Both the position numbers and the translations under genes were made by a program. A stretch of DNA of 56,552 nt, from NCBI GenBank assembly GCA_043818095.1, contig JBDRGD010000005.1:1-56552 (forward strand). The letters run 5' to 3'. The stretch's first letter is position 1; each line of letters opens with the position of its first letter. Of this stretch, positions 2,290 to 22,329 are shown piece after piece. This stretch comes from Chloroflexota bacterium. Its GTDB lineage: Bacteria; Chloroflexota; Dehalococcoidia; Dehalococcoidales; RBG-16-60-22. The notes beneath the pieces were generated by a model. The model ran no database searches. It was not told the origin of the DNA and saw only the letters and a list, made by a program, of their open reading frames with translations.

Positions 2290-4296
2290 TCAGCGTGGTT
2301 GTCGGACTCGTTCCTCATACTCCACCATGACCTCGCTTTTTCTCAGCTCGACGACGCGGTCGCGCAGGAGGGCGGCTTTCTCAAAGTCCAGCTTTTTCGC
2401 GGCGGCTTTCATCTGCGCTTCCAAATCCTTGATGAGCCGGGCGATTTCCTCCCGGCTGGGCGGGACGGCGGCGGTATAGTCGGCCCTGGTCTCCGCCACC
2501 GCTTTCACACGCTCCGTAATGTCCCGGATGGCCTTGCGGATGCCCTGCGGGGTGATACCGTGCTCCCGGTTATAGTCCTCCTGAACGCGGCGTCGGCGCG
2601 TTGTCTCGTCCATCGCCGCCTGCATGGAGCCGGTGACCGTGTCCGCGTACATGATAACGTGCCCGTCGATGTGGCGGGCGGCGCGACCCATCGTCTGGAT
2701 AAGCGCCTGCCGGGAGCGCAGGTAGCCCTCCTTGTCCGCGTCGAGAATCGCCACCAGGCTCACCTCCGGCAAATCCAAGCCCTCCCGCAGCAGGTTGATG
2801 CCGACCACGACGTCATAGACCCCGAGGCGCAGGTCCCGCAGTATCTCAATTCTTTCCAGCGTATCGATTTCCGAGTGCAGATAGTGGGTCTTGACGCCCA
2901 GCTCCAGGAGGTAATCGGCAAGCTCCTCCGCCATGCGCTTGGTCAGGGTGGTCACTAGGCAGCGCGTGCCCTTTTCTACGCGCTTCCGGATTTCCTCCAG
3001 CAGGTCGTCGACTTGCCCCTTCGTCGGCTTGATTTCAATCGTGGGCTCGAGGAGGCCGGTGGGGCGGATAAGCTGCTCCACCACCTGGGTGCTGTGGCTG
3101 AGCTCGTAGTCCGCGGGGGTGGCGGAGGTATAAACGACCTGATTGATGCGCTCCTGGAACTCGTCGAAGTTCAGGGGTCGATTGTCCAGCGCGGAGGGCA
3201 GGCGGAAGCCGTAGTCCACCAGCGTTTCCTTGCGGGAGCGGTCGCCGCGGTACATGCCGCGTATCTGCGGCAGGGTCATGTGCGACTCGTCGATAAAGAG
3301 GAGGAAGTCCTCCGGGAAGTAGTCCACCAGCGTCCAGGGGGCGCTGCCGGGGGCGCGCCCGGCGAGGTGGCGGGAATAGTTCTCCACGGAGTTGCAGTAG
3401 CCGGCCTCCCGCAGCATTTCCAGGTCATAGCTGGTGCGCGCTTCGAGGCGCGCCGCTTCCAGCAGCTTGCCCTGCTGCTTTAGCTCGGCGAGGCGCTCTT
3501 TCAGCTCCTGCTCGATGCTCTCCAGGGCACGCATGAGCTTGTCGTGGGAGGTCACGAAGTGGCGGGCGGGATAGATATCGATTTCCTCCAGCTCGCCGAG
3601 GAGCTCCCCGGTCAGGGGGTCGATGTTGATGATACGCTCGATGTCATCGCCGAAGAACTCGATACGCAAGGCGATTTCTTCATAAGAAGGCTGGACTTCC
3701 AGGGTGTCCCCGCGGATGCGGAACCGGCCCCGGGTAAAGTCCATGTCGTTCCGCTCGTACTGCATGTCCACGAGTCGGCGCAGCAGCTTCTGCCGATTGA
3801 ACGTCTCCCCCTTTTTCAGGCTGACGACGAAGCTGCGGTACTCCTCCGGCTCGCCGAGGCCGTAGATGCAGGAAACCGAAGCGACGATGACCACGTCCCG
3901 CCGCTCGAAGAGGGCGCGGGTGGCGGCGTGGCGCAGCTTGTCGATTTCGTCATTGATGTCGATGTCTTTCTCGATATAGGTGTCGGTGCGGGGGAGGTAA
4001 GCCTCCGGCTGGTAGTAGTCGTAATAGCTGACGAAGTATTCCACGGCATTGTGGGGGAAGAAGTCCCGGAACTCGCTGGAGAGCTGGGCGGCGAGGGTCT
4101 TGTTGTGGCAGATGACCAGCGCGGGGCGCTGCACGCGGGCGATGACGTTGGCCATGGTGAAGGTCTTGCCGCTGCCGGTGACACCCAGCAGGGTCTGGTG
4201 CTTTTCCCGCCTCTCCAGCCCCGCCACCAGCTTGTCCACCGCCTGCGGCTGGTCGCCGGTCATCTGGAAGTCGGCCACGATTTCAAACTGCGGCAT
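2290..4296 (-). CDS. uvrB: Excinuclease ABC subunit B
   Basis: 668 aa; [10 protein letters not shown] Walker A, helicase motifs, C-terminal UVR domain ([18 protein letters not shown]). Confidence 0.97.
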
Positions 4297-4558
4297 GTTA
4301 CTGCGGCGGAGCGGTGATGATGGCGGCGAGGACTACGCCGAACAAGGCGCCGAAAATAGCCCCTGACCAGGGGTTCCCGGTGGCCCCTCAGCCCGGGGCG
4401 CCGCCGCGGCTCCGGGCTCTCCCGAGCAGCCAGCCCAGCCCCCCGCCGATGATGCCGCCGATGACCATGAATAAATACGTCATTGTCCGCCCCCCTGTTT
4501 CCAGTATATCCTTATTTCGGGGGCGCGGGCAAAGTCCGGCGGGACGTCGGGGGGTATT

Positions 4559-4825
4559 TTAGCTTTTTTCCGCCTGTTCCCGGATGTCCCGGAGGCATTC
4601 CCAGAGGTAAGCGGCTTCCCGGTCATGGGGCGCCGTGGCGAGCATGCGGTAAACATTATCGAAGCGCCAGCGGCTGCCTATCTCCCCGGAGGCGGCAATC
4701 TCCCGCCCCCTTCTTACCGCCCAGCGCGTCTGCATCGGCTTGATGACGGTAAGGCTGAAGGCGATGACCGCGCCCAACGCCAGCAGCAGCAATATGTAGA
4801 AGAGTAACCATGTCTGCATGTACAT
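4559..4825 (-). CDS. Hypothetical small membrane-anchored protein
   Basis: 88 aa with a single N-terminal hydrophobic helix (WLLFYILLLLALGAVIAFSL). Co-oriented with uvrB. No family recognised. Confidence 0.45.
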   Translation of the reverse strand: MYMQTWLLFYILLLLALGAVIAFSLTVIKPMQTRWAVRRGREIAASGEIGSRWRFDNVYRMLATAPHDREAAYLWECLRDIREQAEKS

Positions 4826-4900
4826 AACAGTCCCCCTCAGTTTTAGTGTAACGTCCCCAGTTTAACCGCCCGCCCCGCGGCGGACAACGAGGTTAACTTT

Positions 4901-4953
4901 GGGGTGGGGTGGGGGGAGACATATAAAAAGGAGGATAGCGAGGTGGGGAGGGA
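4901..4953. repeat. G-rich direct repeat, copy A (downstream flank of TA cassette)
   Basis: GGGGTGGGGTGGGGGGAGAC-ATA-TAAAAAGGAG... The 20-nt core is identical to 5709-5728 and the following TAAAAAGGAG block is also shared. Confidence 0.75.
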
Positions 4954-4973
4954 CAAAAAGAAAGCGTCCTTAA

Positions 4974-5267
4974 TTACGGGTGCGGGGTAATCGCAATGAT
5001 GGTGATTGTTTCTTTTGCCGGTCCGTAATACCAGAAGACCCGGTAAGCAGCCGGGGTCTTTTGCTGGGCATAGGATTCAAAGACCTTTTCGCCGTTGGGG
5101 CCCTCTAAACTGAAGAACTGGTGGGACTGGAGACTGTTGTGTCTGGGATTCTGTGATAATAATTGAATAGTTTTCCTAACCGCTTTGTAGGGGATGTTTT
5201 GGGAAAGGGAAGCCTTAAGTAATGCGCAGGTCTTTTCGGCTTCTTCCGTCCATTCTATCTGAAACAA
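4974..5267 (-). CDS. Type II toxin, RelE/ParE superfamily-like
   Basis: 97 aa, 11 nt downstream of an AbrB-type antitoxin. The C-terminal AYRVFWYYGP...ITIIAITPHP pattern is typical of RelE/ParE-fold toxins. Confidence 0.75.
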   Translation of the reverse strand: MFQIEWTEEAEKTCALLKASLSQNIPYKAVRKTIQLLSQNPRHNSLQSHQFFSLEGPNGEKVFESYAQQKTPAAYRVFWYYGPAKETITIIAITPHP

Positions 5268-5278
5268 GACCGCAGACC

Positions 5279-5560
5279 CTATAAACTATCGAGGTCAACC
5301 CTGGAAACCCTGCCGTCAGCAGCGTCAGCCAGCCCGCGCCGGACGGATACAATGGCTTCTGGGTTTTGGAATAACCACGCCTCGGAAGCCGGAATGGTCA
5401 CCTGGGGGTCCAGAACGATTTGCCCAAGACTGTTCGAGTAGACATGATAGGTGATGCCTTCCTTTACCACGGTTTTGGGCAGGACCACCCTCTTTTTGGC
5501 ATCCGGCTTCACGCCTTCCGCTATCTTTTTAAGATTGTCATCTTTGATGATGGTTGTCAT
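5279..5560 (-). CDS. Type II antitoxin, AbrB/MazE/SpoVT-type DNA-binding domain
   Basis: MTTIIKDDNLKKIAEGVKPDAKKRVVLPKTVV... then EAWLFQNPEAIVSVRRGLADAADG. ATG at 5560 is preferred over the track's TTG at 5608, because a promoter sits at 5580-5608 and a GGGGA RBS lies 7 nt upstream of 5560. Confidence 0.78.
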   Translation of the reverse strand: MTTIIKDDNLKKIAEGVKPDAKKRVVLPKTVVKEGITYHVYSNSLGQIVLDPQVTIPASEAWLFQNPEAIVSVRRGLADAADGRVSRVDLDSL

Positions 5561-5579
5561 GTTCCAATCCCCATTTATT

Positions 5580-5608
5580 AATATATCCTTTGTGGGACGG
5601 ATTGTCAA
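5580..5608 (-). promoter_or_regulatory. Sigma70-like promoter of the TA operon with flanking GTCCCAC repeats
   Basis: Reverse strand reads GTCCCAC-TTGACA-ATCC-GTCCCAC-AAAGGA-TATATT. This gives -35 TTGACA, a 17-nt spacer and -10 TATATT. The 7-nt direct repeat sits on both sides of the -35 and is operator-like. Confidence 0.55.
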
Positions 5609-5635
5609 GTGGGACTAGCCCACATTTCCTTGTCT

Positions 5636-5690
5636 TTGCGAGCGCAGCGAAGCAATCTGGAGATTGCCGCGGGGCGGAAGCCCCTCGCAA
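5636..5690. repeat. Structured palindromic (REP/MITE-like) intergenic element
   Basis: Outer stem TTGCGAG (5636-42) / CTCGCAA (5684-90) encloses two hairpins: GCAATCT-GG-AGATTGC (5652-67) and GGGGC-GGAA-GCCCC (5671-84). It translates to the CERSEAIS / ASLRSQRQ-type pseudo-peptides typical of intergenic repeat families. Confidence 0.5.
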
Positions 5691-5708
5691 TGACGGAATT
5701 TAAGAGCG

Positions 5709-5762
5709 GGGGTGGGGTGGGGGGAGACCTCTAAAAAGGAGAGCGCTACTGGAGGGAGAAGA
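5709..5762. repeat. G-rich direct repeat, copy B (upstream flank of TA cassette)
   Basis: GGGGTGGGGTGGGGGGAGAC-CTC-TAAAAAGGAG... matches 4901-4953. Confidence 0.75.
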
Positions 5763-5814
5763 TGGGGCAAGAGTTTGTTATCGGCATGATTAAGCACCAT
5801 CTATTATCCAAAGG

Positions 5815-6840
5815 CTAAAATTTGAAAATTGTGTCTGAATCGAAAAAGGATATCTTATGTTTGTAAAAAATTTCATTGAAACGTGCTAAATCCTTAGAAA
5901 TCTGTCCTTGATTTTTTTCGTCGATATGGATAGCAATAGCCAATTCTTTATTACTTCTACGGCTTATCGCATTGACAATATGTGCATCTTGGGTTGATAA
6001 AGACGAGCCATAAATTATTAATTTATTATTGGAATCACGGAATTCTCTCAACGCAAAGGTTAAATAATCATTACTGCGGATTGCTTCTAACTTCTTTTCA
6101 GGTTTACCCTCGCTAATGAATAGAGGGATAATACCATCTACAATTGCTTCATCGATAAGGTCTATGAGTTCGTTTTTATTACCACGACGGATTATTTTTA
6201 CTGTGTGTATTGGTTCTTCAAAAATAAAAAGCGCACCATGAAGATAGTGGATATGTTTATTTGGATATTCATCGCTATCCATGAATTGGTTAAATCGGGC
6301 ATCCGCTTCATATTCTTTCCAGAAATAATCGCTGTATTTTTGCTTCGTTTTATCCTTCTCACATCTGTCCTTCACCAACATAATAATATGATATAAGAAA
6401 AGGTCGTAGTTCAATGTATAAATATCGCCAAATTCATCAAGTTGTATAGCTATTCGAGTTAATTGAGCTTGATTAATATTTGAATATGAAGGGTGGTTGC
6501 TTTTAATGGACTTTATTAATCCGTTTCTTAAAATATCAATAGCACGTATAATTCCATCACTAGGTTTTATCTTAAATAATTTGTTAACTTCCAGAGCATT
6601 AATCAGTGTTTCTTGGATGAGTTCGAAGTTATTATTATGAAAGCTAGTGAAAATCTCTTGGTCTTCAAATTCTAGATTATCAACAAACTTTTGGAACAAT
6701 GATTCATATTTTAAATGACCTACTAAATTAATTGAAAATCCGTTACCTAATAACAAATCAGCGCCAATAAAATCGGGAGAAATCTCTGACCAATTATGGA
6801 TTTTAATGCCTTCCTTTAATTTGCCGGGATATATATCCAT
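5815..6840 (-). CDS. DUF4917-family protein (SIR2-like fold suspected)
   Basis: 341 aa. LLLGNGFS near the N-terminus, IYTLNYD mid-protein, then HYLHGALFIF and PLFISEGKPEKKLEAIRSNDYL, which match my recollection of DUF4917 family motifs and echo the SIR2_2 GxGxS / TTNYD / HLHG pattern. Strikingly AT-rich against a GC-rich background. ATG lies 6 nt after the stop of the upstream GC-rich gene. Confidence 0.8.
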   Translation of the reverse strand: MDIYPGKLKEGIKIHNWSEISPDFIGADLLLGNGFSINLVGHLKYESLFQKFVDNLEFEDQEIFTSFHNNNFELIQETLINALEVNKLFKIKPSDGIIRAIDILRNGLIKSIKSNHPSYSNINQAQLTRIAIQLDEFGDIYTLNYDLFLYHIIMLVKDRCEKDKTKQKYSDYFWKEYEADARFNQFMDSDEYPNKHIHYLHGALFIFEEPIHTVKIIRRGNKNELIDLIDEAIVDGIIPLFISEGKPEKKLEAIRSNDYLTFALREFRDSNNKLIIYGSSLSTQDAHIVNAISRRSNKELAIAIHIDEKNQGQISKDLARFNEIFYKHKISFFDSDTIFKF

Positions 6841-6846
6841 TCCCTC

Positions 6847-7287
6847 CTACACCTCCAGCAAATCAAACCCACTCCTCTCATCCGGCAGGCGGGCGGCTTT
6901 CGCCCCCGTGATTTCCGTGACTATCGCCTCCGCCACCAGCCACGTTTTAACCCCGGGGCGCAGGCAGCCGGCGGCGGCTTTGCCCGCCCGCCCCAGCGCC
7001 GCGTGGATGTGCAGCACCGGCTTGCCGTCTTTGTCCGGGGCGATGATGCCCGCCCCCACCACCTCGTGCGCGCCGTCCACGGGGAGAAGGAGGGGGTCGG
7101 GGGGCATCTCCTCCGTCCTGCGCGGGCCCGCCACGATTTCTCCACTCCCGACTCCGCCCACCAGGACAACCTGCGCCACCCTGATGCCCTGCCCCGCCGC
7201 GAACTGCTCCAGGCAGTCCGGGATAACGTCGCCGTCTTCCAGCCGGAGCACGAAGACCCGCCCCAGCCTGCCTTCACTCGCTTTCAT
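6847..7287 (-). CDS. PPC (DUF296) domain DNA-binding protein
   Basis: MKASEGRLGRVFVLRLEDGDVIPDCLEQFAAGQGIRVAQVVLVGGVGSG... ATG at 7287 is preceded by AAGGAGG, so the track's longer N-terminus to 7353 is rejected. Confidence 0.82.
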   Translation of the reverse strand: MKASEGRLGRVFVLRLEDGDVIPDCLEQFAAGQGIRVAQVVLVGGVGSGEIVAGPRRTEEMPPDPLLLPVDGAHEVVGAGIIAPDKDGKPVLHIHAALGRAGKAAAGCLRPGVKTWLVAEAIVTEITGAKAARLPDERSGFDLLEV

Positions 7288-7367
7288 CGGAGACCTCCTT
7301 ATTGCTTTTCCAGTATAGCCGCCGACCCCGCTGGTTGCAATCGGCGCTTTCACCTATAATAAGGAGA

Positions 7368-8093
7368 ATGGCCAGCGAAAGTATTATAAAACTGCTTACC
7401 GGGGCGGGCGTCGGCTCGCGGCGGAAAGTTGCCGCGCTCATCAAGGCGGGCGAGGTAACCGTCAACGGGGAGGCCGTTACCGGCTTCAACCACCCGGTGG
7501 ACGCCGCCCGTGACGAAGTCACCGTCTCCGGAAAGCCCGTGGCGCTGCGCGGGGAAAAGGTGGTCTACCTGCTGATGCACAAGCCGGCGGGAGTGCTTTC
7601 CACGGCAGAAGACGAGCGGGGGCGGCGCACCGTGCTGGACCTCCTGCCCGCCCGGTACCGTCGCTTGCGCCTCTACCCGGTGGGGCGGCTGGACCTGGAC
7701 AGCACGGGGCTGCTGCTGCTCACCAACGACGGCGACCTCACCTACCGGCTGACCCATCCCCGCTACGAGATGCCCAGGGAATACCTCGTGCAGACCGTCG
7801 GCACGCTGAGTCGCCAGGATATTGAGCGACTGGAGGCGGGACTGAACCTGGAGGACGGCAAAACGAGCCCGGCGCGGGTGCGCCCCGTGGTGGCGGACCC
7901 CTTCGATTACAGCATCGTCATCCATGAAGGGAAAAAGCGGCAGGTGCGGCGCATGTTCGGCGCGCTGGGGCACCCGGTGAAAGCGCTGAAAAGGGTGCGC
8001 CTGGGGAGCCTGCAGCTCGGCGCCCTGAAAGAAGGCGAGGTGCGGGAACTGACCGCCGCGGAGGTCAAAGCTTTGCGCGGCAAGCCGAAATAA
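7368..8093 (+). CDS. rRNA pseudouridine synthase (RsuA/RluB family) with N-terminal S4 domain
   Basis: MASESIIKLLTGAGVGSRRKVAALIKAGEVTVNG (S4), and GRLDLDSTGLLLLTNDG catalytic Asp motif. Confidence 0.9.
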   Translation: MASESIIKLLTGAGVGSRRKVAALIKAGEVTVNGEAVTGFNHPVDAARDEVTVSGKPVALRGEKVVYLLMHKPAGVLSTAEDERGRRTVLDLLPARYRRLRLYPVGRLDLDSTGLLLLTNDGDLTYRLTHPRYEMPREYLVQTVGTLSRQDIERLEAGLNLEDGKTSPARVRPVVADPFDYSIVIHEGKKRQVRRMFGALGHPVKALKRVRLGSLQLGALKEGEVRELTAAEVKALRGKPK

Positions 8094-8100
8094 AATGGCC

Positions 8101-9570
8101 CTATTTCTTGCGCTTGCCCGGCCGGTTAACGTCGAGGATTCCCTTCTTCCGGGCCAGCTCGCCCGGCGTGGGGGTCTTGCCGAACTTCCGGAAAAGCCGT
8201 CGGTACTGCGGCAGTGTCTCCGCGGGGAAAGATTTGGGCTTCTCGGAAACGCCCGCATCCGGGGCAGAGGGCGAAAAATCGGGGAAGTGGGGCATCCGGG
8301 GACGCGGTATCCTGAAGACCCAGCCGAAGGGGTCGGCCGGGAGGCGGGGGTTGAAAAACCAGGCGTAGACCGCCCGCAGCGGGGTGCCTTCCAGGAGCAG
8401 CAGTAAGATTGACGAGCCGACGATGCTCAGCAGAATCAGGCCGTAGGTCAGGTCCCGGATAAACTCGCCGCCGACGACCCCACGCTGCAGCGGGACCACC
8501 GCCAGCACGGCGGCCGCCAGCCCTTTCGGCACCATAATCGCCATGAGGGAGGCGTCCCGCACCGGCACGGAACGGGCGACGGTCAGCTTGACCGCCGGGA
8601 TGCGCAGGATGAAGACCAGCACGGTGAAAATCAGCGCCATCTGCACCATCCAGCCGGTGATGATTTGCAGGGAGATTCCCAGGTACACGAAGAAGAACGT
8701 TTTCAGCAGGAAGGCGACCTCGCTGAAGAAAATCCGCTCCGTCTGGTTAAGCCCGCCCGCCTCGCTGTTGCGGGGCTTGCGGAAGACGTAAAAGCGGATG
8801 GATTCGATGTTCCCCAGGGTGATGCCGAAGGCCAGGGAGGCGATGGCGCCGTTAAAGCCCAGTATCTCCACCACGCCGAAGATGATAAAGACGAAAGCCG
8901 GGGTGGTGAACAGGGTGTTCTTGATGGCGTGTATCCGTTTCAGCAGCTTCGCCCAGATAAAGGCGCCGACAATACCGATGATGATAGCCACCAGGAAAGA
9001 AGCAATCAGGCTCCCGGCGACGGGCGCCAAATTGAATTCCCCCATCGTGTAAGCCTCCACGAGGGCGATGGTGAGGACGATGCTCAGGACATCATTCACC
9101 GAGGACTCGACGCCGAGAATCGTCTGGCTGTCCTTGCGCATCTTGAGCTGCTGGATAAGAGGGATGACGATGGCCTCCGAAATGGAGCCGACAATCGCTC
9201 CGAGGATAAAGGAGGGTATCAGCTCCAGGTCCGTGAAAAAGTAAGCGACGCCGGCGGTGGCAAACATCGTCAGGAAAAAACCGACCGTCGCCAGTGCCAT
9301 CGCCCCGGCCACGGAGCGGCGCAGGGTAAGCAGCTCCAGGGTGGTGCCGCTTTCAAAGAGGATGATTATCAGGGTAATCATCGCCAGGACGCCGCCCACA
9401 GCGCCGAACTGCTCCGGAGACGCCAGTCCCAGGACGGGACCGATAGCGATGCCGATGAGTATCAGCAGCAGGACGTCAGGCACCCGCGTGCGGCTGAAGA
9501 TAGCCGTAAAGAGATGGGCGAGGAAGACCATGACGCCCACGAACGCGATGACGGGAGCGATTTCCTGCAT
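8101..9570 (-). CDS. Cation:proton antiporter (Na+/H+ exchanger, CPA1-like)
   Basis: 489 aa polytopic membrane protein with Na_H_Exchanger-like helices and a basic cytoplasmic tail. Confidence 0.88.
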   Translation of the reverse strand: MQEIAPVIAFVGVMVFLAHLFTAIFSRTRVPDVLLLILIGIAIGPVLGLASPEQFGAVGGVLAMITLIIILFESGTTLELLTLRRSVAGAMALATVGFFLTMFATAGVAYFFTDLELIPSFILGAIVGSISEAIVIPLIQQLKMRKDSQTILGVESSVNDVLSIVLTIALVEAYTMGEFNLAPVAGSLIASFLVAIIIGIVGAFIWAKLLKRIHAIKNTLFTTPAFVFIIFGVVEILGFNGAIASLAFGITLGNIESIRFYVFRKPRNSEAGGLNQTERIFFSEVAFLLKTFFFVYLGISLQIITGWMVQMALIFTVLVFILRIPAVKLTVARSVPVRDASLMAIMVPKGLAAAVLAVVPLQRGVVGGEFIRDLTYGLILLSIVGSSILLLLLEGTPLRAVYAWFFNPRLPADPFGWVFRIPRPRMPHFPDFSPSAPDAGVSEKPKSFPAETLPQYRRLFRKFGKTPTPGELARKKGILDVNRPGKRKK

Positions 9571-9600
9571 GCCTGTCCGCCGTCCCTAAAGATATTCCTA

Positions 9601-9629
9601 ACTTTAAAGGGCACTACGGGTATTGTCAA
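9601..9629 (-). promoter_or_regulatory. Sigma70-like promoter for the antiporter gene
   Basis: Reverse strand TTGACA-17 nt-TAAAGT, about 30 nt upstream of the ATG at 9570. Confidence 0.45.
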
Positions 9630-9640
9630 GGGTGCGCCCC

Positions 9641-10222
9641 CTATCCGGTACTGAAGTACTGGAGGGCCAGCCTTACCTTCTCTTCGAGCCCGAGGTCGGC
9701 ATTATCCGGCAGGGAGGCAACGGCCTTGGTGGCTTCCGCGGCGGAGTAGCCCAGGGAGGTGAGAGCGGCCAGCACGTCCGCGTTTTCCCGGACCATCTCC
9801 GGGACCGGCGCGGCGATGCCGGCGCCGATTTTGTCCTTAAGCTCCAGGATGATGCGACTGGCGACTTTTTTCCCGATGCCGGGGACAATCGTGAGCAGGT
9901 CGACGTTGCCGGTAGCAATCGCCAGGATAAGCTGTCCCACGTTGATGGCGGAGAGCATTGCCAGCGCCAGCCTGGGTCCCAGTCCGGAGACGCTGAGGAG
10001 CAACTGGAAAAGGGAAAGCTCTTCCGGCGCGCTGAAGCCGTAAAGGGCGACACCGTCCTCCCGCAGATGCAGGTGGGTGTAAAGTTTGACCTCGCTGTGC
10101 GGCGCCCCCAGCGAGCCCAGTGTGGCCGCGCCCATGTGTACCAGGAAACCGACGCCGCCCACGTTGATTATCGCCCAGCCGGCGCCGATGGTCTCCAGTT
10201 TCCCCTGGAGGCTGTAAATCAT
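9641..10222 (-). CDS. ruvA: Holliday junction DNA helicase subunit RuvA
   Basis: MIYSLQGKL... OB fold, then HhH motifs (LLSVSGLGPRLALAML, IVPGIGKKVASRIILELK). Confidence 0.95.
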   Translation of the reverse strand: MIYSLQGKLETIGAGWAIINVGGVGFLVHMGAATLGSLGAPHSEVKLYTHLHLREDGVALYGFSAPEELSLFQLLLSVSGLGPRLALAMLSAINVGQLILAIATGNVDLLTIVPGIGKKVASRIILELKDKIGAGIAAPVPEMVRENADVLAALTSLGYSAAEATKAVASLPDNADLGLEEKVRLALQYFSTG

Positions 10223-17460: not shown

Positions 17461-18390
17461 GTGCTGCTTGAGGAGGAGCTCGCCCGGTTTTCACCTCGGC
17501 AGGAAACCCTGCTCACCATCGGCGTTTTTGACGGCGTTCACCTCGGGCACAAGCACCTGATTGCCCGGCTCATCAAGCAGGCCAGGAGTGAGCGCTGCCT
17601 CGCCGGGGTGGTCACCTTCCGCCAGCACCCCCAGGACTTCTTCAGTCCCGGCACCAGACTGCCCTTCCTGACCGACCTGACGGAGAGAACGGCGCTCCTC
17701 GAGGAAGCCGGCGTGGACCTGATTGTGCCCCTCTCTTTCAACGCCGAGCTTACCCGGCTGAGCGCCCGGGAGTTCCTCACCCGGCTGCAAAAACACCTGA
17801 AAATGCGCGGCCTCGTCCTCGGTCCGGATTTTGCCCTGGGGAAAGACCGGGAGGGGGACGTGACGGCGCTGCGGCGGCTGGGCGAGGAGATGGGCTTCAG
17901 CGTCAGCGCGGTAGCGCCGTTGACGGCCGGCGCCGACATCGTGAGCAGCACGGCCATCCGGGAGGCAATTATCATCGGGGACGTGGAGAAAGCGGAAAGA
18001 CTGATGGGGCGCCCCTTCAACCTGCACGGCACGGTGGTCAGCGGGACCCACCGTGGCCAGCAACTGGGCTTTCCCACGGCGAACCTGAAGTTGAACCACG
18101 AGCAGGCGCTCCCGACGGACGGCGTTTATGCCGGCTGGGCTTACGTCAACGACAAGCGTTATCCGGCGATGGCCAACATCGGCAAGAACCCCACCTTCAA
18201 CGGCAGGGTCCGGACGGCGGAGGTCCACCTGCTGGACTTTCACGGCGACCTCTACGGCAGCGAGCTGAAGGTGGACCTGGTGAAATACCTGCGCGGGGAA
18301 AAGAAGTTCGACACCGCCGAAGAACTGAAACAGCAGATTACGGATGATATCGTCATGGGGAGAGCGGCGCTGGGCTGCCGCACGGGATAA
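17461..18390 (+). CDS. ribF: Bifunctional riboflavin kinase / FMN adenylyltransferase
   Basis: GVFDGVHLGHKHL, then a C-terminal riboflavin kinase domain (GFPTANL...). Confidence 0.95.
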   Translation: MLLEEELARFSPRQETLLTIGVFDGVHLGHKHLIARLIKQARSERCLAGVVTFRQHPQDFFSPGTRLPFLTDLTERTALLEEAGVDLIVPLSFNAELTRLSAREFLTRLQKHLKMRGLVLGPDFALGKDREGDVTALRRLGEEMGFSVSAVAPLTAGADIVSSTAIREAIIIGDVEKAERLMGRPFNLHGTVVSGTHRGQQLGFPTANLKLNHEQALPTDGVYAGWAYVNDKRYPAMANIGKNPTFNGRVRTAEVHLLDFHGDLYGSELKVDLVKYLRGEKKFDTAEELKQQITDDIVMGRAALGCRTG

Positions 18391-18396
18391 CCGGCC

Positions 18397-19584
18397 ATGA
18401 GTAAGACAGAAAACAGTCAGGACATGGAATACCTGCTGCGCCGCGGCGTGGCGGAAATTATCGTTGCCGCGGAGATGCGGGAACTGCTGCGCTCGGGTAA
18501 AAAGCTGCGGCTGAAAGAAGGCTTCGACCCCAGTTTCCCGGATATCCACCTCGGGCACATAGTGGCGCTGCGGAAGCTCCGCCAGCTACAGGAGCTCGGG
18601 CACCAGGTCATCCTCATCGTCGGCGACTGGACGGCGCAGATCGGCGACCCCAGCGGGGCGTCCGTCACCCGCCCGATGCTCACCGCGGAGCAGGTGAAAA
18701 AGAACGCCGAGACCTACATGCAGCAGTTTTTCAAGGTGGTGGACAAGAGCCGCACGGAGGTCAAGTGGCAGAGCGAGTGGTTCGGCAATTTCAGCCTCGC
18801 GGATGTCATCCGCCTGACCAGCAAGTTCACCGTGGCGCAGCTCCTGGCACGGGACGACTTCAGTGCCCGCTACGCTGACAACCGCCCCATCGCCATTACC
18901 GAGCTGCTTTACCCCCTCCTCCAGGCTTACGATTCCATCATGGTGCAGTCGGACGTCGAGTTCGGCGGGACCGACCAGAAATTCAATCTCCTCATGGGAC
19001 GCGAGCTCCAGCAGATGTCCGGGCAGCGCCCGCAGCAGTGCTTCATGACTCCCCTGCTGGTGGGCACGGACGGCACCCATAAGATGAGCAAGAGCCTGGG
19101 GAACTACATCGGCGTGGCGGAGCCGCCGGAGCAGATTTACGGCAAGGTCATGTCCGTGCCGGACGACCTGATTATCCAGTACTTCGAGCTGGTGACCGAT
19201 GTCTCCGAGGCGGAACTGGATGAATTCAAAACGCAGCTCGACGGTGGCAAGGTCAACCCGATGGCCCTGAAAAAGCGCCTGGCGCGGGAAATCGTCGGGC
19301 AGCTTTACAGCGCCGGAGAGGCGACACAGGCGGAGGCCCATTTCGCGAAGGTGGTGCAGAATAAAGAGCTCCCGGAGGATATCCGGGAGTTCGAATGCCG
19401 GAACCTGCCCATCAGCCAGGTGCTGGTCAAAACGGGCCTGGTCTCCAGCCGCAGCGAGGCTTTCCGCATGATACAGCAGGGGGCTGTCAGTATTGAGGAA
19501 CAGAAGGTCACCGATGCCAACCTGCCCGTCCCCCCGGGTATCGTCATCAGGGTGGGGAAGAGGCGTTTTCTGAAATCCATGTAG
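18397..19584 (+). CDS. tyrS: Tyrosine--tRNA ligase
   Basis: HIGH-type motif (DIHLGH), KMSKS, C-terminal S4-like domain. Confidence 0.96.
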   Translation: MSKTENSQDMEYLLRRGVAEIIVAAEMRELLRSGKKLRLKEGFDPSFPDIHLGHIVALRKLRQLQELGHQVILIVGDWTAQIGDPSGASVTRPMLTAEQVKKNAETYMQQFFKVVDKSRTEVKWQSEWFGNFSLADVIRLTSKFTVAQLLARDDFSARYADNRPIAITELLYPLLQAYDSIMVQSDVEFGGTDQKFNLLMGRELQQMSGQRPQQCFMTPLLVGTDGTHKMSKSLGNYIGVAEPPEQIYGKVMSVPDDLIIQYFELVTDVSEAELDEFKTQLDGGKVNPMALKKRLAREIVGQLYSAGEATQAEAHFAKVVQNKELPEDIREFECRNLPISQVLVKTGLVSSRSEAFRMIQQGAVSIEEQKVTDANLPVPPGIVIRVGKRRFLKSM

Positions 19585-19631
19585 CACCGGGAGCGGTGCT
19601 GCTTTAGCAAAATAAAGTTAAGGAGTCGAGC

Positions 19632-20720
19632 ATGGCACAGTTGCGCATCCCCGGCCCCACCCCCTGTCCTGAGGAGGTCCTCAAGGCGGTGGGTAAACAG
19701 ATGGTAAACCACCGCGGTCCCGAGTTCATCGCCCTGATTAACAAGGTCACGGACCAGCTGAAGCAGGTCTTCAAGACCAAAAACGACCTCTTCGTCCTGA
19801 CCGGCTCGGGTACGGGTGGCCTTGAAGCGGGGGTGGTCAACGTGCTCTCCCCCGGCGACAAGGTCCTCTCCGTGTCCATCGGCGTCTTCGGTGACCGTTG
19901 GGCGCAGATTGCGCAGACCTTCGGCGCCCAGGTGGTGCCCCTGAAATACGAGATGGGCAAGGCCGCGAAACCTGATGATATCCGCCAGGCGCTAAAGGCG
20001 GACCCGCAGATAAAAGCCGTCCTGATAACCCATAACGAGACCTCCACCGGCGTCACCAATGACCTGAAAGCCCTCAGCGCCGCGGTCAAGGAGTCCGGCA
20101 AGCTGCTGCTGGTGGACGCCATCAGCAGCCTCGGTTCCATTGAGCTGCCGGTGGACGAGTGGCAGGTGGACGTTGCCATCAGCGGCTCCCAGAAGGGCTG
20201 GATGGTCCCGCCCGGCCTGGCTTTCGTCAGCGTCAGCCCCCGGGCGTGGCAGGCTTTCGAAAACGCGAAGATGCCGCGCTTTTACTGGGACTTCGGCAAG
20301 GCGAAGAAGTACCTGGAAAAGGGACAGACCCCCTGGACCCCCGCCGTCTCCGTGCTTTACGGCCTCGAGGTCGCCCTGGATATGATGTTCAAGGAAGGCC
20401 TGGAGAACATCGTCGCCCGCCACAAGCGCATCGGCAAGGTGGCGCGGGAAGGCGTCAAGGCGCTGGGGCTGCCGCTGCTGGCGGATGAAGCCTATGCCTC
20501 AAACACGGTGACCGCGGTGGCCGAAGTGGCGGGGCTGGAATCCAAGAAGCTCACCAAGGTGATGCGCGAGGAATACCAGATTGTCCTCGCCGGCGGTCAG
20601 GGCAAGCTGGAAGGCAAGATTTTCCGTATCGGGCATCTCGGCCTGGTTACCGAGCAGGAAATCGCTGAGGTGATGGCCGCCCTGAAGGAGGCTTTACCCA
20701 AGGCGGGATTCCAGGGATAA
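19632..20720 (+). CDS. Class V aminotransferase (serine-pyruvate / phosphoserine aminotransferase-like)
   Basis: 362 aa, SGSQKG PLP-lysine region. Sits directly upstream of serA, suggesting the phosphoserine aminotransferase role. Confidence 0.88.
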   Translation: MAQLRIPGPTPCPEEVLKAVGKQMVNHRGPEFIALINKVTDQLKQVFKTKNDLFVLTGSGTGGLEAGVVNVLSPGDKVLSVSIGVFGDRWAQIAQTFGAQVVPLKYEMGKAAKPDDIRQALKADPQIKAVLITHNETSTGVTNDLKALSAAVKESGKLLLVDAISSLGSIELPVDEWQVDVAISGSQKGWMVPPGLAFVSVSPRAWQAFENAKMPRFYWDFGKAKKYLEKGQTPWTPAVSVLYGLEVALDMMFKEGLENIVARHKRIGKVAREGVKALGLPLLADEAYASNTVTAVAEVAGLESKKLTKVMREEYQIVLAGGQGKLEGKIFRIGHLGLVTEQEIAEVMAALKEALPKAGFQG

Positions 20721-20754
20721 ATTCACGGTAAATACCGTGGAAAGCAGGTGTACG

Positions 20755-22329
20755 ATGAAGGTACTGGTAACGGACGCCATATCCGAAGAAGGACTGGCAC
20801 TATTGCGGGAACACGCCCAGGTGGACATCAAGACCGGGCTGAAACCCGAGGAGATTATCCAGATAATCGGCGACTATGAAGCGCTGATGGTGCGCAGCCA
20901 GACCAAGGTCACCGCCGACGTTATCCGGGCGGGGAAAAAGCTGATGGTGATTGCCCGGGCGGGAGTGGGTATCGACAACGTGGACCTGGAGACAGCCACG
21001 CAGCACGGCATTGCCGTGGTCAACGCCCCCACGGGAAACACCGTTTCCGCGGCGGAGCACTCCGTCGCCCTGATGATGGCGCTGGCCCGCCATATCCCCC
21101 AGGCGAACGCCTCCCTCAAGGCCTGCCAGTGGCGCCGCAACGATTTCATGGGGGCGGAGCTGCGGGGCAAGACGATGGGGATTATCGGACTGGGTAACGT
21201 CGGTTCGGCGGTGGCCCGGCGCGCCCAGGGACTGGAGATGAACGTCCTCGGCTTTGACCCCCTGGTCTCCGTGGACTACGCCGATAAGTTCCACGTGAAA
21301 CTGGTCTCCCTGGAAGACCTGCTCAAGCAGTCGGACTTCATTACCCTGCACATCCCCCTGAATGACAAGACACGGGGGCTGCTCGGGGAGAAACAACTCG
21401 CGCTGGTAAAGCCCACGGTGCGCATTATCAACTGCGCCCGCGGCGGCCTGATTAACGAGAAGGCGCTGGTCGCCGCCCTCCAGGAAAAGAGGGTGGCGGG
21501 CGTCGCGGTGGACGTTTTTGAGAAAGAGCCCTGCACGGAAAGCCCCCTTTTCGCCTTCGAAAACGTTATCGTCACCCCCCACCTCGGCGCCTCGACCGCC
21601 GAAGCCCAGGTCATGGCGGCAATAGACGTCGCCGAGCAGGTGGCGAGCATCTTCCAGGGTAAGCCGGCGCGCTATGCCCTCAATGCCCCCTTCATTGCCC
21701 CGGAGACCATGACAGCGCTGAGCCCGTTTATCGGGGTGGCGGCCGCCCTGGGTAAGCTCATCTACCGGCTGGCGGAGGGTCAGGCGGAAACCATCCGCAT
21801 CCGCTACGAGGGCGAAATCGGTAACTATGACACCAACGCCCTGAAGCTGACCGTGCTGGGCGGGCTGCTGGAGGGGACCAGTGAGGAAAGGGTGAACCTG
21901 GTCAACGCCAGCCTGATTGCCGCCCGCCGCGGCCTGGCGGTGGTGGAAGAGCGGGAAGGCTGCTGCGAGAACTACAACAGCCTGCTGACGGTCACGGTGA
22001 CCACCACCAAAGGGAAAACGACGACCGCCGGGACGGTGATGCACGGCGAGACCCACATCGTCCGGGTGAATGACTACTGGCTGGACCTTGTGCCCTCCGG
22101 GGGCTATTTCCTCTTCTCGGAACACGTGGACCAGCCGGGGCTCATCGGCAAGGTGGGACAGATTACGGGCGATGCCGATATCAACATCAGCGCCATGCAC
22201 CTGGGCCGATTGAAGCCGCGCGGGCAGGCGATGCTGGTGCTGGCACTGGACGAGCCACTGCCCGAAGAGCAGCAGCAGAAAATCCTGTCCCTGCCGGATG
22301 TTTACAGCGTCAAGCAGGTCAAGCTTTAG
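20755..22329 (+). CDS. serA: D-3-phosphoglycerate dehydrogenase with C-terminal ACT domain
   Basis: MKVLVTDAI..., GIIGLGNVG NAD loop, long form of about 525 aa. Confidence 0.95.
   Translation: MKVLVTDAISEEGLALLREHAQVDIKTGLKPEEIIQIIGDYEALMVRSQTKVTADVIRAGKKLMVIARAGVGIDNVDLETATQHGIAVVNAPTGNTVSAAEHSVALMMALARHIPQANASLKACQWRRNDFMGAELRGKTMGIIGLGNVGSAVARRAQGLEMNVLGFDPLVSVDYADKFHVKLVSLEDLLKQSDFITLHIPLNDKTRGLLGEKQLALVKPTVRIINCARGGLINEKALVAALQEKRVAGVAVDVFEKEPCTESPLFAFENVIVTPHLGASTAEAQVMAAIDVAEQVASIFQGKPARYALNAPFIAPETMTALSPFIGVAAALGKLIYRLAEGQAETIRIRYEGEIGNYDTNALKLTVLGGLLEGTSEERVNLVNASLIAARRGLAVVEEREGCCENYNSLLTVTVTTTKGKTTTAGTVMHGETHIVRVNDYWLDLVPSGGYFLFSEHVDQPGLIGKVGQITGDADINISAMHLGRLKPRGQAMLVLALDEPLPEEQQQKILSLPDVYSVKQVKL

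Follow-up and report, generated by a model that had tools for sequence, protein, structure and literature searches.

How does an AT-rich gene come to lie among the GC-rich genes between ruvA and uvrB in an uncultured Chloroflexota bacterium, and what might its product do there? The gene occupies positions 5815 to 6840 on the minus strand of contig JBDRGD010000005.1 (assembly GCA_043818095.1, Dehalococcoidales), whose 56,552 nucleotides were analysed as a whole and are called the window below, and it encodes a protein of 341 residues that belongs to the Pfam family DUF4917. An earlier note on this DNA had presented the gene as a candidate single-gene defence effector directed at nicotinamide adenine dinucleotide (NAD+) and as a recent arrival from a low-GC donor. 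Our analysis carries the first of these proposals further and turns against the second. The protein has a predicted SIR2-like fold, matches a candidate defence family and stands in a slot that it shares with defence genes of related genomes. We put the full reading, that of a stand-alone SIR2-like defence NADase acting as a single-gene effector of the abortive-infection type, at roughly even odds (a probability of about 0.5).

The family assignment is the firmest part of the argument. In a hidden Markov model (HMM) search, PF16263 (DUF4917) matches the protein at 169 bits (cut-off 28, E=2.2e-49) over residues 29-337 and profile positions 1-307 of 311, a full-length match that bears out what had been recognised from motifs. 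The open reading frame (ORF) runs on the minus strand from an ATG start to a TAG stop, and the motifs LLLGNGFS (residues 29-36), IYTLNYD (140-146), HYLHGALFIF (198-207) and PLFISEGKPEKK (239-250) all lie where they had been placed. The protein also matches the PADLOC candidate family PDC-S21 through two models (PDLC04961, E=4.8e-81 over residues 13-338; PDLC04960, E=7e-68). It has no match to AbiH (PF14253) at E<=0.1 in Pfam or E<=1 in PADLOC, and the PADLOC scan of the protein returned no Thoeris or Dsr match. Among the relatives that we aligned, all 69 match PF16263, 22 cross-match SIR2_2 (E<=0.01, best 2.8e-5) and five weakly match AbiH (best 5.6e-4). The window protein belongs to DUF4917 and PDC-S21 but falls outside SIR2_2, AbiH, ThsA, DSR, Nezha and the canonical sirtuins.

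Structure prediction connects this family to known immune proteins. An AlphaFold2 model built from the 69-sequence alignment has a predicted local distance difference test score of 90.1 and a predicted template modelling (TM) score of 0.88. When it was compared with the PDB by Foldseek, all 15 significant matches were chains of SIR2-HerA/Nezha, BcThsA and KomC entries. The best is 8suw_B of SIR2-HerA (E=1.3e-9, probability 1.00, TMq 0.52; sequence identity to the SIR2-HerA entries is 12-16%), and the others include BcThsA (8btp_A, E=4.6e-4) and KomC (E about 8e-4). A PDB sequence search with the 69-sequence profile found no SIR2 protein or other relative, so the link to solved structures is made by fold comparison only. 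In the model a strand precedes each motif: residues 28-31 lead into GNGFS, 140-142 into LNYD and 195-199 into LHG. Sirtuins carry their GAGxS, TQNxD and HG motifs at equivalent positions. The motifs are invariant or nearly so in the family, with G32-N33-G34-F35-S36, Y145-D146, L200-H201-G202, E244, K250, G278 and D285 invariant in the 69 sequences and N144 present in 62 of them. The protein is very likely a SIR2-fold enzyme that utilises NAD+.

The description of the protein as standing alone also holds. DUF4917 comprises 2,063 representatives at 50% clustering (E<=1e-3), and the 150 best of these are mostly 320-350 residues long, so the domain is a stand-alone one. No conserved partner gene occurs in any homologue context that we examined, plasmids included. 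The ratio of nonsynonymous to synonymous substitution (dN/dS) is 0.25-0.29 for DUF4917 and 0.05 to 0.21 for core genes, which shows that the gene is under purifying selection, looser than that on core genes, and has been kept functional.

From these features a mechanism can be proposed. The protein would be a single-domain enzyme from the immune branch of the SIR2 superfamily, in which the G32-N-G-F-S36 loop most likely binds NAD+ and N144/D146 and H201 would serve to cleave it. As a latent NADase it would be switched on by a phage-derived cue, with collapse of NAD+ and abortive infection as the outcome. The candidate sensing surfaces are the least conserved parts of the protein, namely a helical insert at about residues 41-136, the 161-180 loop and the 221-240 segment; block conservation there is 0.49-0.62, compared with 0.68-0.74 in the motif-bearing blocks. 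Expression would probably come by read-through from the promoter of the PCC gene that directly precedes it, the DUF4917 gene having no promoter of its own, and its non-host codon usage might, more speculatively, keep the basal level low.

How does such a protein relate to the characterised members of its superfamily? The SIR2 effectors of Thoeris, DSR, SIR2-HerA and pAgo systems deplete NAD+ (PMC13064643; bioRxiv 10.1101/2024.09.18.613514). Closest in fold is SIR2-HerA, or Nezha (PDB 8suw, 8sub, 8j4u), a defence NADase with the SIR2 fold and without a zinc module. The Nezha SIR2 acts as a dodecamer together with a HerA ATPase whose gene is adjacent; among the contexts that we examined, no HerA or other ATPase lies beside the window gene or its homologues. 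ThsA of Thoeris is likewise a SIR2-fold NAD+-depleting effector but has a SLOG sensor domain and a TIR partner, ThsB, and the Pfam and PADLOC scans of the window neighbours found no TIR gene. DSR2 is again a SIR2-fold NAD+-depleting effector, in which a C-terminal domain senses phage (PMC13064643). That sensing domain is large, and DSR1 and DSR2 are long fusions of SIR2 and sensor, whereas the window protein has 341 residues, one domain and no partner gene. Closest in concept is AbiH of Lactococcus (PF14253), a stand-alone, single-domain SIR2-like abortive-infection protein of a different family. AbiH is predicted to be sirtuin-like, confers phage resistance as a single gene according to Prevots et al. 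1996 (reviewed in PMC13064643) and has been grouped with the immune "SIRim" SIR2s (bioRxiv 10.1101/2024.09.18.613514).

Two further comparisons bear directly on the family. The PDC models are guilt-by-embedding candidates, drawn from genes found within BREX, DISARM or type I restriction-modification (R-M) loci (Payne et al. 2024, bioRxiv 10.1101/2024.01.29.577857). The window protein shares with PDC-S21 direct HMM membership and the single-gene, stand-alone architecture; it differs in setting, lying between repair genes and not, like the seeds, inside a BREX, DISARM or type I R-M locus. The second comparison is with SliP of Campylobacter jejuni (Cjj81176_0779), the one DUF4917 protein known to have been studied, whose reported consumption of NAD+ depends on its G-N-G motif (PMC10421069), which overturns the earlier statement that DUF4917 has no experimentally defined role. 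The sliP gene shares its operon with the gene for a type I restriction R subunit (Cjj81176_0779/0780; PMC10421069). SliP and the window protein have the Pfam family and the G-N-G loop in common, and SliP adjoins a defence gene; the two are likened by family only, and their organisms and ecology are entirely different. Embedding beside type I R-M genes is the kind of setting from which PDC candidates are nominated, and a defence function of SliP may coexist with its role in virulence or be masked by it.

The setting of the gene in the window provides a second line of evidence. The features that matter are these:

2290 to 4296, minus strand: uvrB, downstream anchor of a variable slot, 76-83% identical across 80 metagenome loci
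4901 to 4933, no strand assigned: second copy of a 33-nt direct repeat, downstream of the two-ORF cassette
4974 to 5608, minus strand: two-ORF cassette of putative toxin-antitoxin (TA) type (ORFs 5279-5608 and 4974-5267), GC about 0.49
5709 to 5741, no strand assigned: first copy of the 33-nt direct repeat, which reads CTCCTTTTTAGAGGTCTCCCCCCACCCCACCCC (C-rich) on the gene strand and follows the DUF4917 stop at a distance of 73 nt
5815 to 6840, minus strand: DUF4917 / PADLOC PDC-S21 gene, read from ORF and translation, for a stand-alone SIR2-like putative NADase
6841 to 6846, minus strand: 6-nt spacer GAGGGA from the PCC stop to the DUF4917 ATG, read directly from the sequence
6847 to 7287, minus strand: PCC/DUF296 gene, a conserved host gene (PF03479, E=8.5e-21)
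7312 to 7340, minus strand: sigma-70-like promoter candidate TTGCAA-17-TATACT upstream of PCC, from a consensus scan
9641 to 10222, minus strand: ruvA, upstream anchor of the variable slot (yebC-ruvC-ruvA), located by tblastn synteny at 51-70% identity across loci

On the minus strand the order is yebC, ruvC, ruvA, an antiporter gene, rsuA (on the opposite strand), PCC, DUF4917, the first repeat, the two-ORF cassette, the second repeat, a small membrane ORF and uvrB. The PCC stop (TAG, 6849-6847) and the DUF4917 start form the junction TAG-GAGGGA-ATG on the gene strand, and the G of the stop together with the spacer gives a purine-rich, Shine-Dalgarno-like GGAGGGA; the 6-nt gap and this motif are as the earlier note had read them. 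Its observation that the gene is far more AT-rich than its surroundings was equally accurate. GC is 0.319 in the gene against 0.607 in the whole window, with 0.69 in PCC, 0.65 in rsuA and 0.63 in uvrB. By codon position it is 0.41/0.25/0.29, where the neighbours have 0.80-0.86 at third positions (GC3), and the lowest-GC 500-bp bin of the 56.5-kb window is 6001-6500 (0.338). The contig end at 1-1000 forms a second low-GC stretch (0.40-0.46); it holds two small plus-strand ORFs without Pfam matches (53-247 and 362-559), upstream of an ORF at 748-1869.

Comparison with relatives shows that the interval between uvrB and ruvA (4297-9640 in the window) is variable. We fetched 80 metagenome loci by their UvrB anchor, 76-83% identical, and in relatives (loci L087-L159) the slot from ruvA, or from PCC, to uvrB measures from 91 nt to 6 kb. 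The PCC gene is 62-77% identical to the PCC genes found at the same position behind ruvA. The DUF4917 gene is accessory and not core: of the 48 UvrB-anchored loci that extend 1.3 kb or more upstream, 47 lack it, and of the 28 in which ruvA and uvrB are both seen, one has it. In non-carriers the slot holds other ORFs, mostly low in GC and on the same strand. Its occupants include an Mrr type IV restriction enzyme (PADLOC mREase_IV, 3.8e-89), a GmrSD-like protein (PDC-M55C, 6.8e-69), DUF3800, an N6/N4 DNA methylase, HEPN_Swt1 and a PD-(D/E)XK-like ORF, besides an M48 peptidase, TPR proteins and unknowns. The 3' end of the yebC-ruvC-ruvA(-PCC) string, just ahead of uvrB, is thus a small variable slot for defence cargo. 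In one Dehalococcoidales metagenome-assembled genome (MAG) a heliorhodopsin gene lies in the slot immediately upstream of DUF4917 (L004:9082-9873), so the slot also takes cargo unrelated to defence.

The way in which these genes are placed recurs as well. At the conserved PCC stop (...GFDLLEV*), six different cargo genes start no more than 35 nt away, and one of the six overlaps the stop; the spacers are otherwise 6-35 nt long, and most carry a purine-rich Shine-Dalgarno sequence. Other cargo genes begin 12-75 nt after the stop of ruvA or of an Endonuc_Holl gene. These placements support the idea that the gene was inserted as a promoterless cassette, but as something that happens repeatedly at this slot rather than once. 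The consensus scan of the window fits no promoter-like site into the 6-nt gap, and the site at 7340-7312 upstream of PCC is its only promoter candidate able to drive PCC and DUF4917. PCC and DUF4917 probably make up a bicistronic unit in which PCC comes first. A box with the sequence TATACTGGAAA (repeat D6) lies on the minus strand upstream of uvrB (4498-4511) and of PCC (7307-7320), overlaps the -10 element of each promoter-like site there (4532-4503 and 7340-7312), and may represent the -10 region of the lineage. Beyond the DUF4917 stop, a scan of the minus strand found no terminator-like site, the fold of the downstream region is not significant (z=-1.8), and an Rfam scan of 4200-7600 gave no match.

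One could extend these observations to a general account of the slot, in which promoterless, AT-rich single-gene defence cargos (DUF4917, Mrr, GmrSD, HEPN, DUF3800 and others) would be swapped in behind the last host stop and exchanged between lineages by recombination in the conserved flanks. Read-through from a DNA-repair operon would express them, so that their dosage would be coupled to DNA damage, and the AT-rich codon usage of DUF4917 would be actively maintained, for example to throttle translation of a toxic NADase, and would not be a relic of transfer. Taken in its entirety this account is tentative, and we consider it clearly unlikely.

When did the gene arrive? The extreme compositional contrast, with edges that fall sharply at the ORF, invites the explanation given in the earlier note, that the gene was acquired recently from a low-GC donor and has yet to ameliorate. 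The accessory status of the gene in its lineage fits this explanation, and a late arrival in this particular lineage is possible, no genome with a UvrB more than 83% identical being available. The distribution of the homologues points the other way. The best homologue, P0002 (58% identity), starts 12 nt after a ruvA stop, and five further lineages carry a homologue of 46-54% identity that is likewise flanked by ruvA and uvrB and oriented as in the window, namely L002 (a JGI metagenome contig), L004 (the Dehalococcoidales MAG named above), L166, L167 and L115. Seven carriers, the window and P0002 included, thus occupy the slot behind ruvA, six of them with uvrB downstream. Other close homologues lie at dnaX-recR-recO (L001), prs-secA (L174) and coaE (L176). 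On the L001 contig (with P0042), a weak P22 portal match and an SU10/HK97-type capsid gene at 17954-21017 lie 7-10 kb from DUF4917, and a prophage may be present near it.

The composition of these copies bears on the question as well. The Chloroflexota copies have a GC of 0.31-0.38 (GC3 0.30-0.38) against 0.48-0.57 in their flanks; every slot copy, that of the window included, lies 10-29 GC points below its flanks, and all homologues of at least 46% identity with known context are in Chloroflexota, with a deficit of 10-23 points from flanks in that same range. At four-fold degenerate sites the window gene and five co-oriented slot copies are 0.22-0.39 identical, where random expectation is 0.24-0.33, which amounts to saturation; yet GC at these sites is about 0.22 in the window DUF4917 compared with 0.93 in its own uvrB. 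Low GC thus appears to be a long-kept trait of the DUF4917 clade in Chloroflexota and not a fresh insertion scar, because it persists through saturating synonymous divergence inside GC-richer hosts, a pattern not predicted for unameliorated DNA. A recent, single insertion is therefore unlikely, though far from negligible, and the earlier claim of recent acquisition finds no support in the comparison of seven AT-rich slot carriers. Over 84 loci from many phyla, DUF4917 genes average 8.8 GC points below their flanks, and the Bacteroidota copies match their hosts, which would fit either a recent insertion or, at depth, a low-GC ancestral home, the latter being plausible.

Long residence does not make this a core gene. 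Some relatives do have the gene in the same slot and with the same low GC, as the earlier note had said a core gene would, but its presence in one of 28 slots marks it as accessory. Strict co-divergence with the flanking genes was considered and rejected: the distances among six slot carriers, taken for DUF4917 and for the flanking core genes, agree only in part (Mantel p=0.15), since both trees have the window as outgroup but L115 is discordant. Between L002 and L166/L167, dS is 0.54-0.63 for DUF4917 and 0.85-2.3 for the flanking genes, whereas protein identity is 72-73% for DUF4917 and 85-87% for UvrB. Since dS is lower in DUF4917 than in the flanks although the proteins differ more, these values suggest lateral exchange of alleles within the slot.

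Contexts in other genomes form a third line of evidence. With Pfam we surveyed the surroundings of DUF4917 genes in 67 other genomes, 147 ORFs lying no more than 2.5 kb away. The commonest neighbour families include AbiEii (4), N6_Mtase (3), Methylase_S (3), ResIII (3), HSDR_N (2) and HsdM_N (2), with DruA once, and one neighbour is a type ISP R-M enzyme. Mobile-element neighbours comprise RteC (3), TraG/TraD (3) and transposases. A control set more than 6 kb away consisted mostly of housekeeping genes and integrases. The survey gives qualitative support and not statistical enrichment. Homologues at 27-33% identity are carried by 37 plasmids, and the four plasmid contexts that we examined hold VapBC/PIN or Phd-PIN modules, DUF3800, a HaeIII-type restriction endonuclease and relaxase or partition genes. 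DUF3800 directly adjoins DUF4917 on the Leptospira interrogans plasmid Laicp (L169, 5959-8027), and a DUF3800 gene also occupies the Chloroflexota ruvA-uvrB slot (L127:2593-3408); the pair may represent a recurrent association of two uncharacterised defence-context families.

Taking these lines together, a defence role of the DUF4917 protein is plausible, because the protein matches PDC-S21, defence genes occupy its slot, and AbiE, R-M, Druantia, TA and mobile-element genes are its neighbours elsewhere. The candidate effector of the earlier note therefore stands with respect to its SIR2-like fold, its defence-family match and its shared slot. It loses some of its novelty, as the NCBI annotation of this MAG contig already calls the gene product a DUF4917 family protein and PADLOC already lists the family as a candidate.

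A number of points weigh against the defence reading. The SIR2_2 profile (PF13289) scores below threshold (13.3 bits against 24.5, E=0.093), and the relation between DUF4917 and SIR2_2 is one of remote homology and not of membership. The Foldseek TM-scores are moderate, at about 0.5. The local context consists of housekeeping genes and one TA-like pair, not of a classical defence island. In the wider survey, defence genes flank roughly 10-15% of the 67 loci, and the control set also held some R-M genes and integrases. No DUF4917 homologue occurs in 50,697 phage records, an absence that is neutral for a host defence gene and lends no support to a role in competition between prophages. The co-transcription of PCC and DUF4917 through which the gene would be expressed is read from the consensus promoter scan alone. 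Anti-phage protection by any DUF4917 protein has not been reported, none of the papers found that mention DUF4917 is about defence, and PDC-S21 is named in no paper that we found. Finally, SliP has been interpreted as a secreted lysine deacetylase that acts on host histones (PMC10421069).

This last interpretation leads to the alternative that fares best with respect to function, namely that the window protein is an NAD+-dependent protein deacylase or ADP-ribosyltransferase with a specific protein target, a regulatory or effector sirtuin that does not deplete NAD+. The SIR2 catalytic motifs are compatible with either chemistry, and SliP shows a modest lysine deacetylation in vitro that is stimulated by NAD+ and Zn and lost in G24A/G26A (PMC10421069). 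The SliP activities are small, however, at about 2-fold, and sliP adjoins a type I R-M subunit (PMC10421069). Moreover, the window protein has a single cysteine (C160) among its 341 residues and hence no Cys4 zinc module of the kind found in canonical deacetylating sirtuins. The best canonical sirtuin in the Foldseek comparison, the archaeal 1m2h, is a marginal match (E=0.057, TMq 0.24), as against E=1e-9 for defence NADases. A patchy accessory distribution, carriage on plasmids and a hotspot context also fit conflict systems better, and we regard a deacylase or transferase of this kind as clearly unlikely.

Could the NADase instead serve mobile DNA, as a selfish stabilising or toxic gene of the addiction type with no role in phage defence? 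The plasmid-borne homologues near TA modules and near partition and mobilisation genes, the frequency of conjugative-element genes and transposases among the neighbours and the TA-like pair that adjoins the gene in the window are all in keeping with this idea. Against it, no conserved antitoxin or immunity gene adjoins DUF4917 in any context that we examined. The Chloroflexota copies lie between housekeeping genes, the ruvA-uvrB slot contains no integrase or mobility gene, and what the slot holds in place of DUF4917 is bona fide restriction enzymes, all of which makes the addiction explanation quite improbable. A housekeeping role in DNA repair or recombination, which the co-orientation with ruvCA and uvrB, the recurrent placement behind ruvA in seven divergent lineages, the L001 copy beside dnaX-ybaB-recR-recO and a Leifsonia copy 8 kb from yebC-ruvC-ruvA might suggest, has next to no chance, given that the gene is missing from 27 of the 28 complete slots that keep the repair genes, that restriction enzymes and other cargo otherwise fill the slot, that close homologues lie at unrelated loci (prs-secA, coaE) and on plasmids, and that its codon usage is foreign.

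The TA-like pair and the repeats had been presented as part of the gene's surroundings, a TA cassette and repeat elements next to it. The layout of the two ORFs and a promoter-like site of their own at 5608-5580 (11 of 12 consensus matches) do agree with such a cassette, and given that site the ATG at 5560 is the probable start of the first ORF. An identity as a type II module (RelE/StbE toxin with an AbrB-like antitoxin) is not confirmed: the only family signal is a sub-threshold RelE_StbE match (E=0.054, 14 bits, cut-off 27.9), and the cassette ORFs have no Pfam match and no PDB sequence match. A 33-nt direct repeat is indeed present, its copies 94% identical and reading GGGGTGGGGTGGGGGGAGACNTNTAAAAAGGAG on the plus strand, and it occurs twice in the window, where the expectation is 0.01; what it encloses, however, is the two-ORF cassette and not the DUF4917 gene. 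Because of its own promoter-like site and the bracketing repeats, the cassette appears to be a unit separate from the DUF4917 gene, and it may be a separate insertion or duplication unit.

Other elements lie in the same intergenic space or recall the repeat. Downstream of DUF4917, a GC-rich palindromic element (…TTGCGAGCGCAGCGAAGCAATCTGGAGATTGCCGCGGGGCGGAAGCCCCTCGCAATGAC…) in window positions 5630-5700, with a 20-nt palindrome at 5638-5657, is present as a single copy and presumably resembles the short palindromic intergenic repeats of many uncultured bacteria. Related Chloroflexota have a conserved intergenic motif, [CT]TAT[CA]T[AT]TT-CCCACCCACCACCC, which is found shortly after cargo genes and also elsewhere between genes and is often followed by an AGAGAGGC...GCCTCTCT-TTTT hairpin (sites at L166:11040-11110, L167:11040-11075, L172:1100-1170, L110:9395-9450, L102:9540-9570, L095:245-300, L092:9010-9040 and L109:8645-8675), and motif and hairpin together could form the 3' end of an operon or a terminator module. 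C-rich intergenic motifs related to the 33-nt repeat occur directly 3' of cargo genes and at other intergenic sites. An attC-like cassette recombination site was considered for the C-rich motif and rejected, as it lies also at other intergenic sites and even inside ORFs; judged from its distribution, it appears to be a lineage-wide intergenic element.

For these uncultured, Dehalococcoidia-like Chloroflexota, the analysis reveals a small hotspot for defence cargo between core genes, at the 3' end of a string of repair genes. It also indicates that GC contrast is a poor clock, in that a gene whose composition looks freshly foreign (GC3 of 0.29 against 0.8) can belong to a clade that has long resided in GC-rich hosts. 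For the family, a stand-alone SIR2 protein without a sensor raises the question of how it is kept off and then switched on, a question common to DUF4917 and AbiH. If DUF4917 were confirmed as an NAD+-depleting defence effector, a widespread single-gene system would be added to the known repertoire, and SliP would merit a second look.

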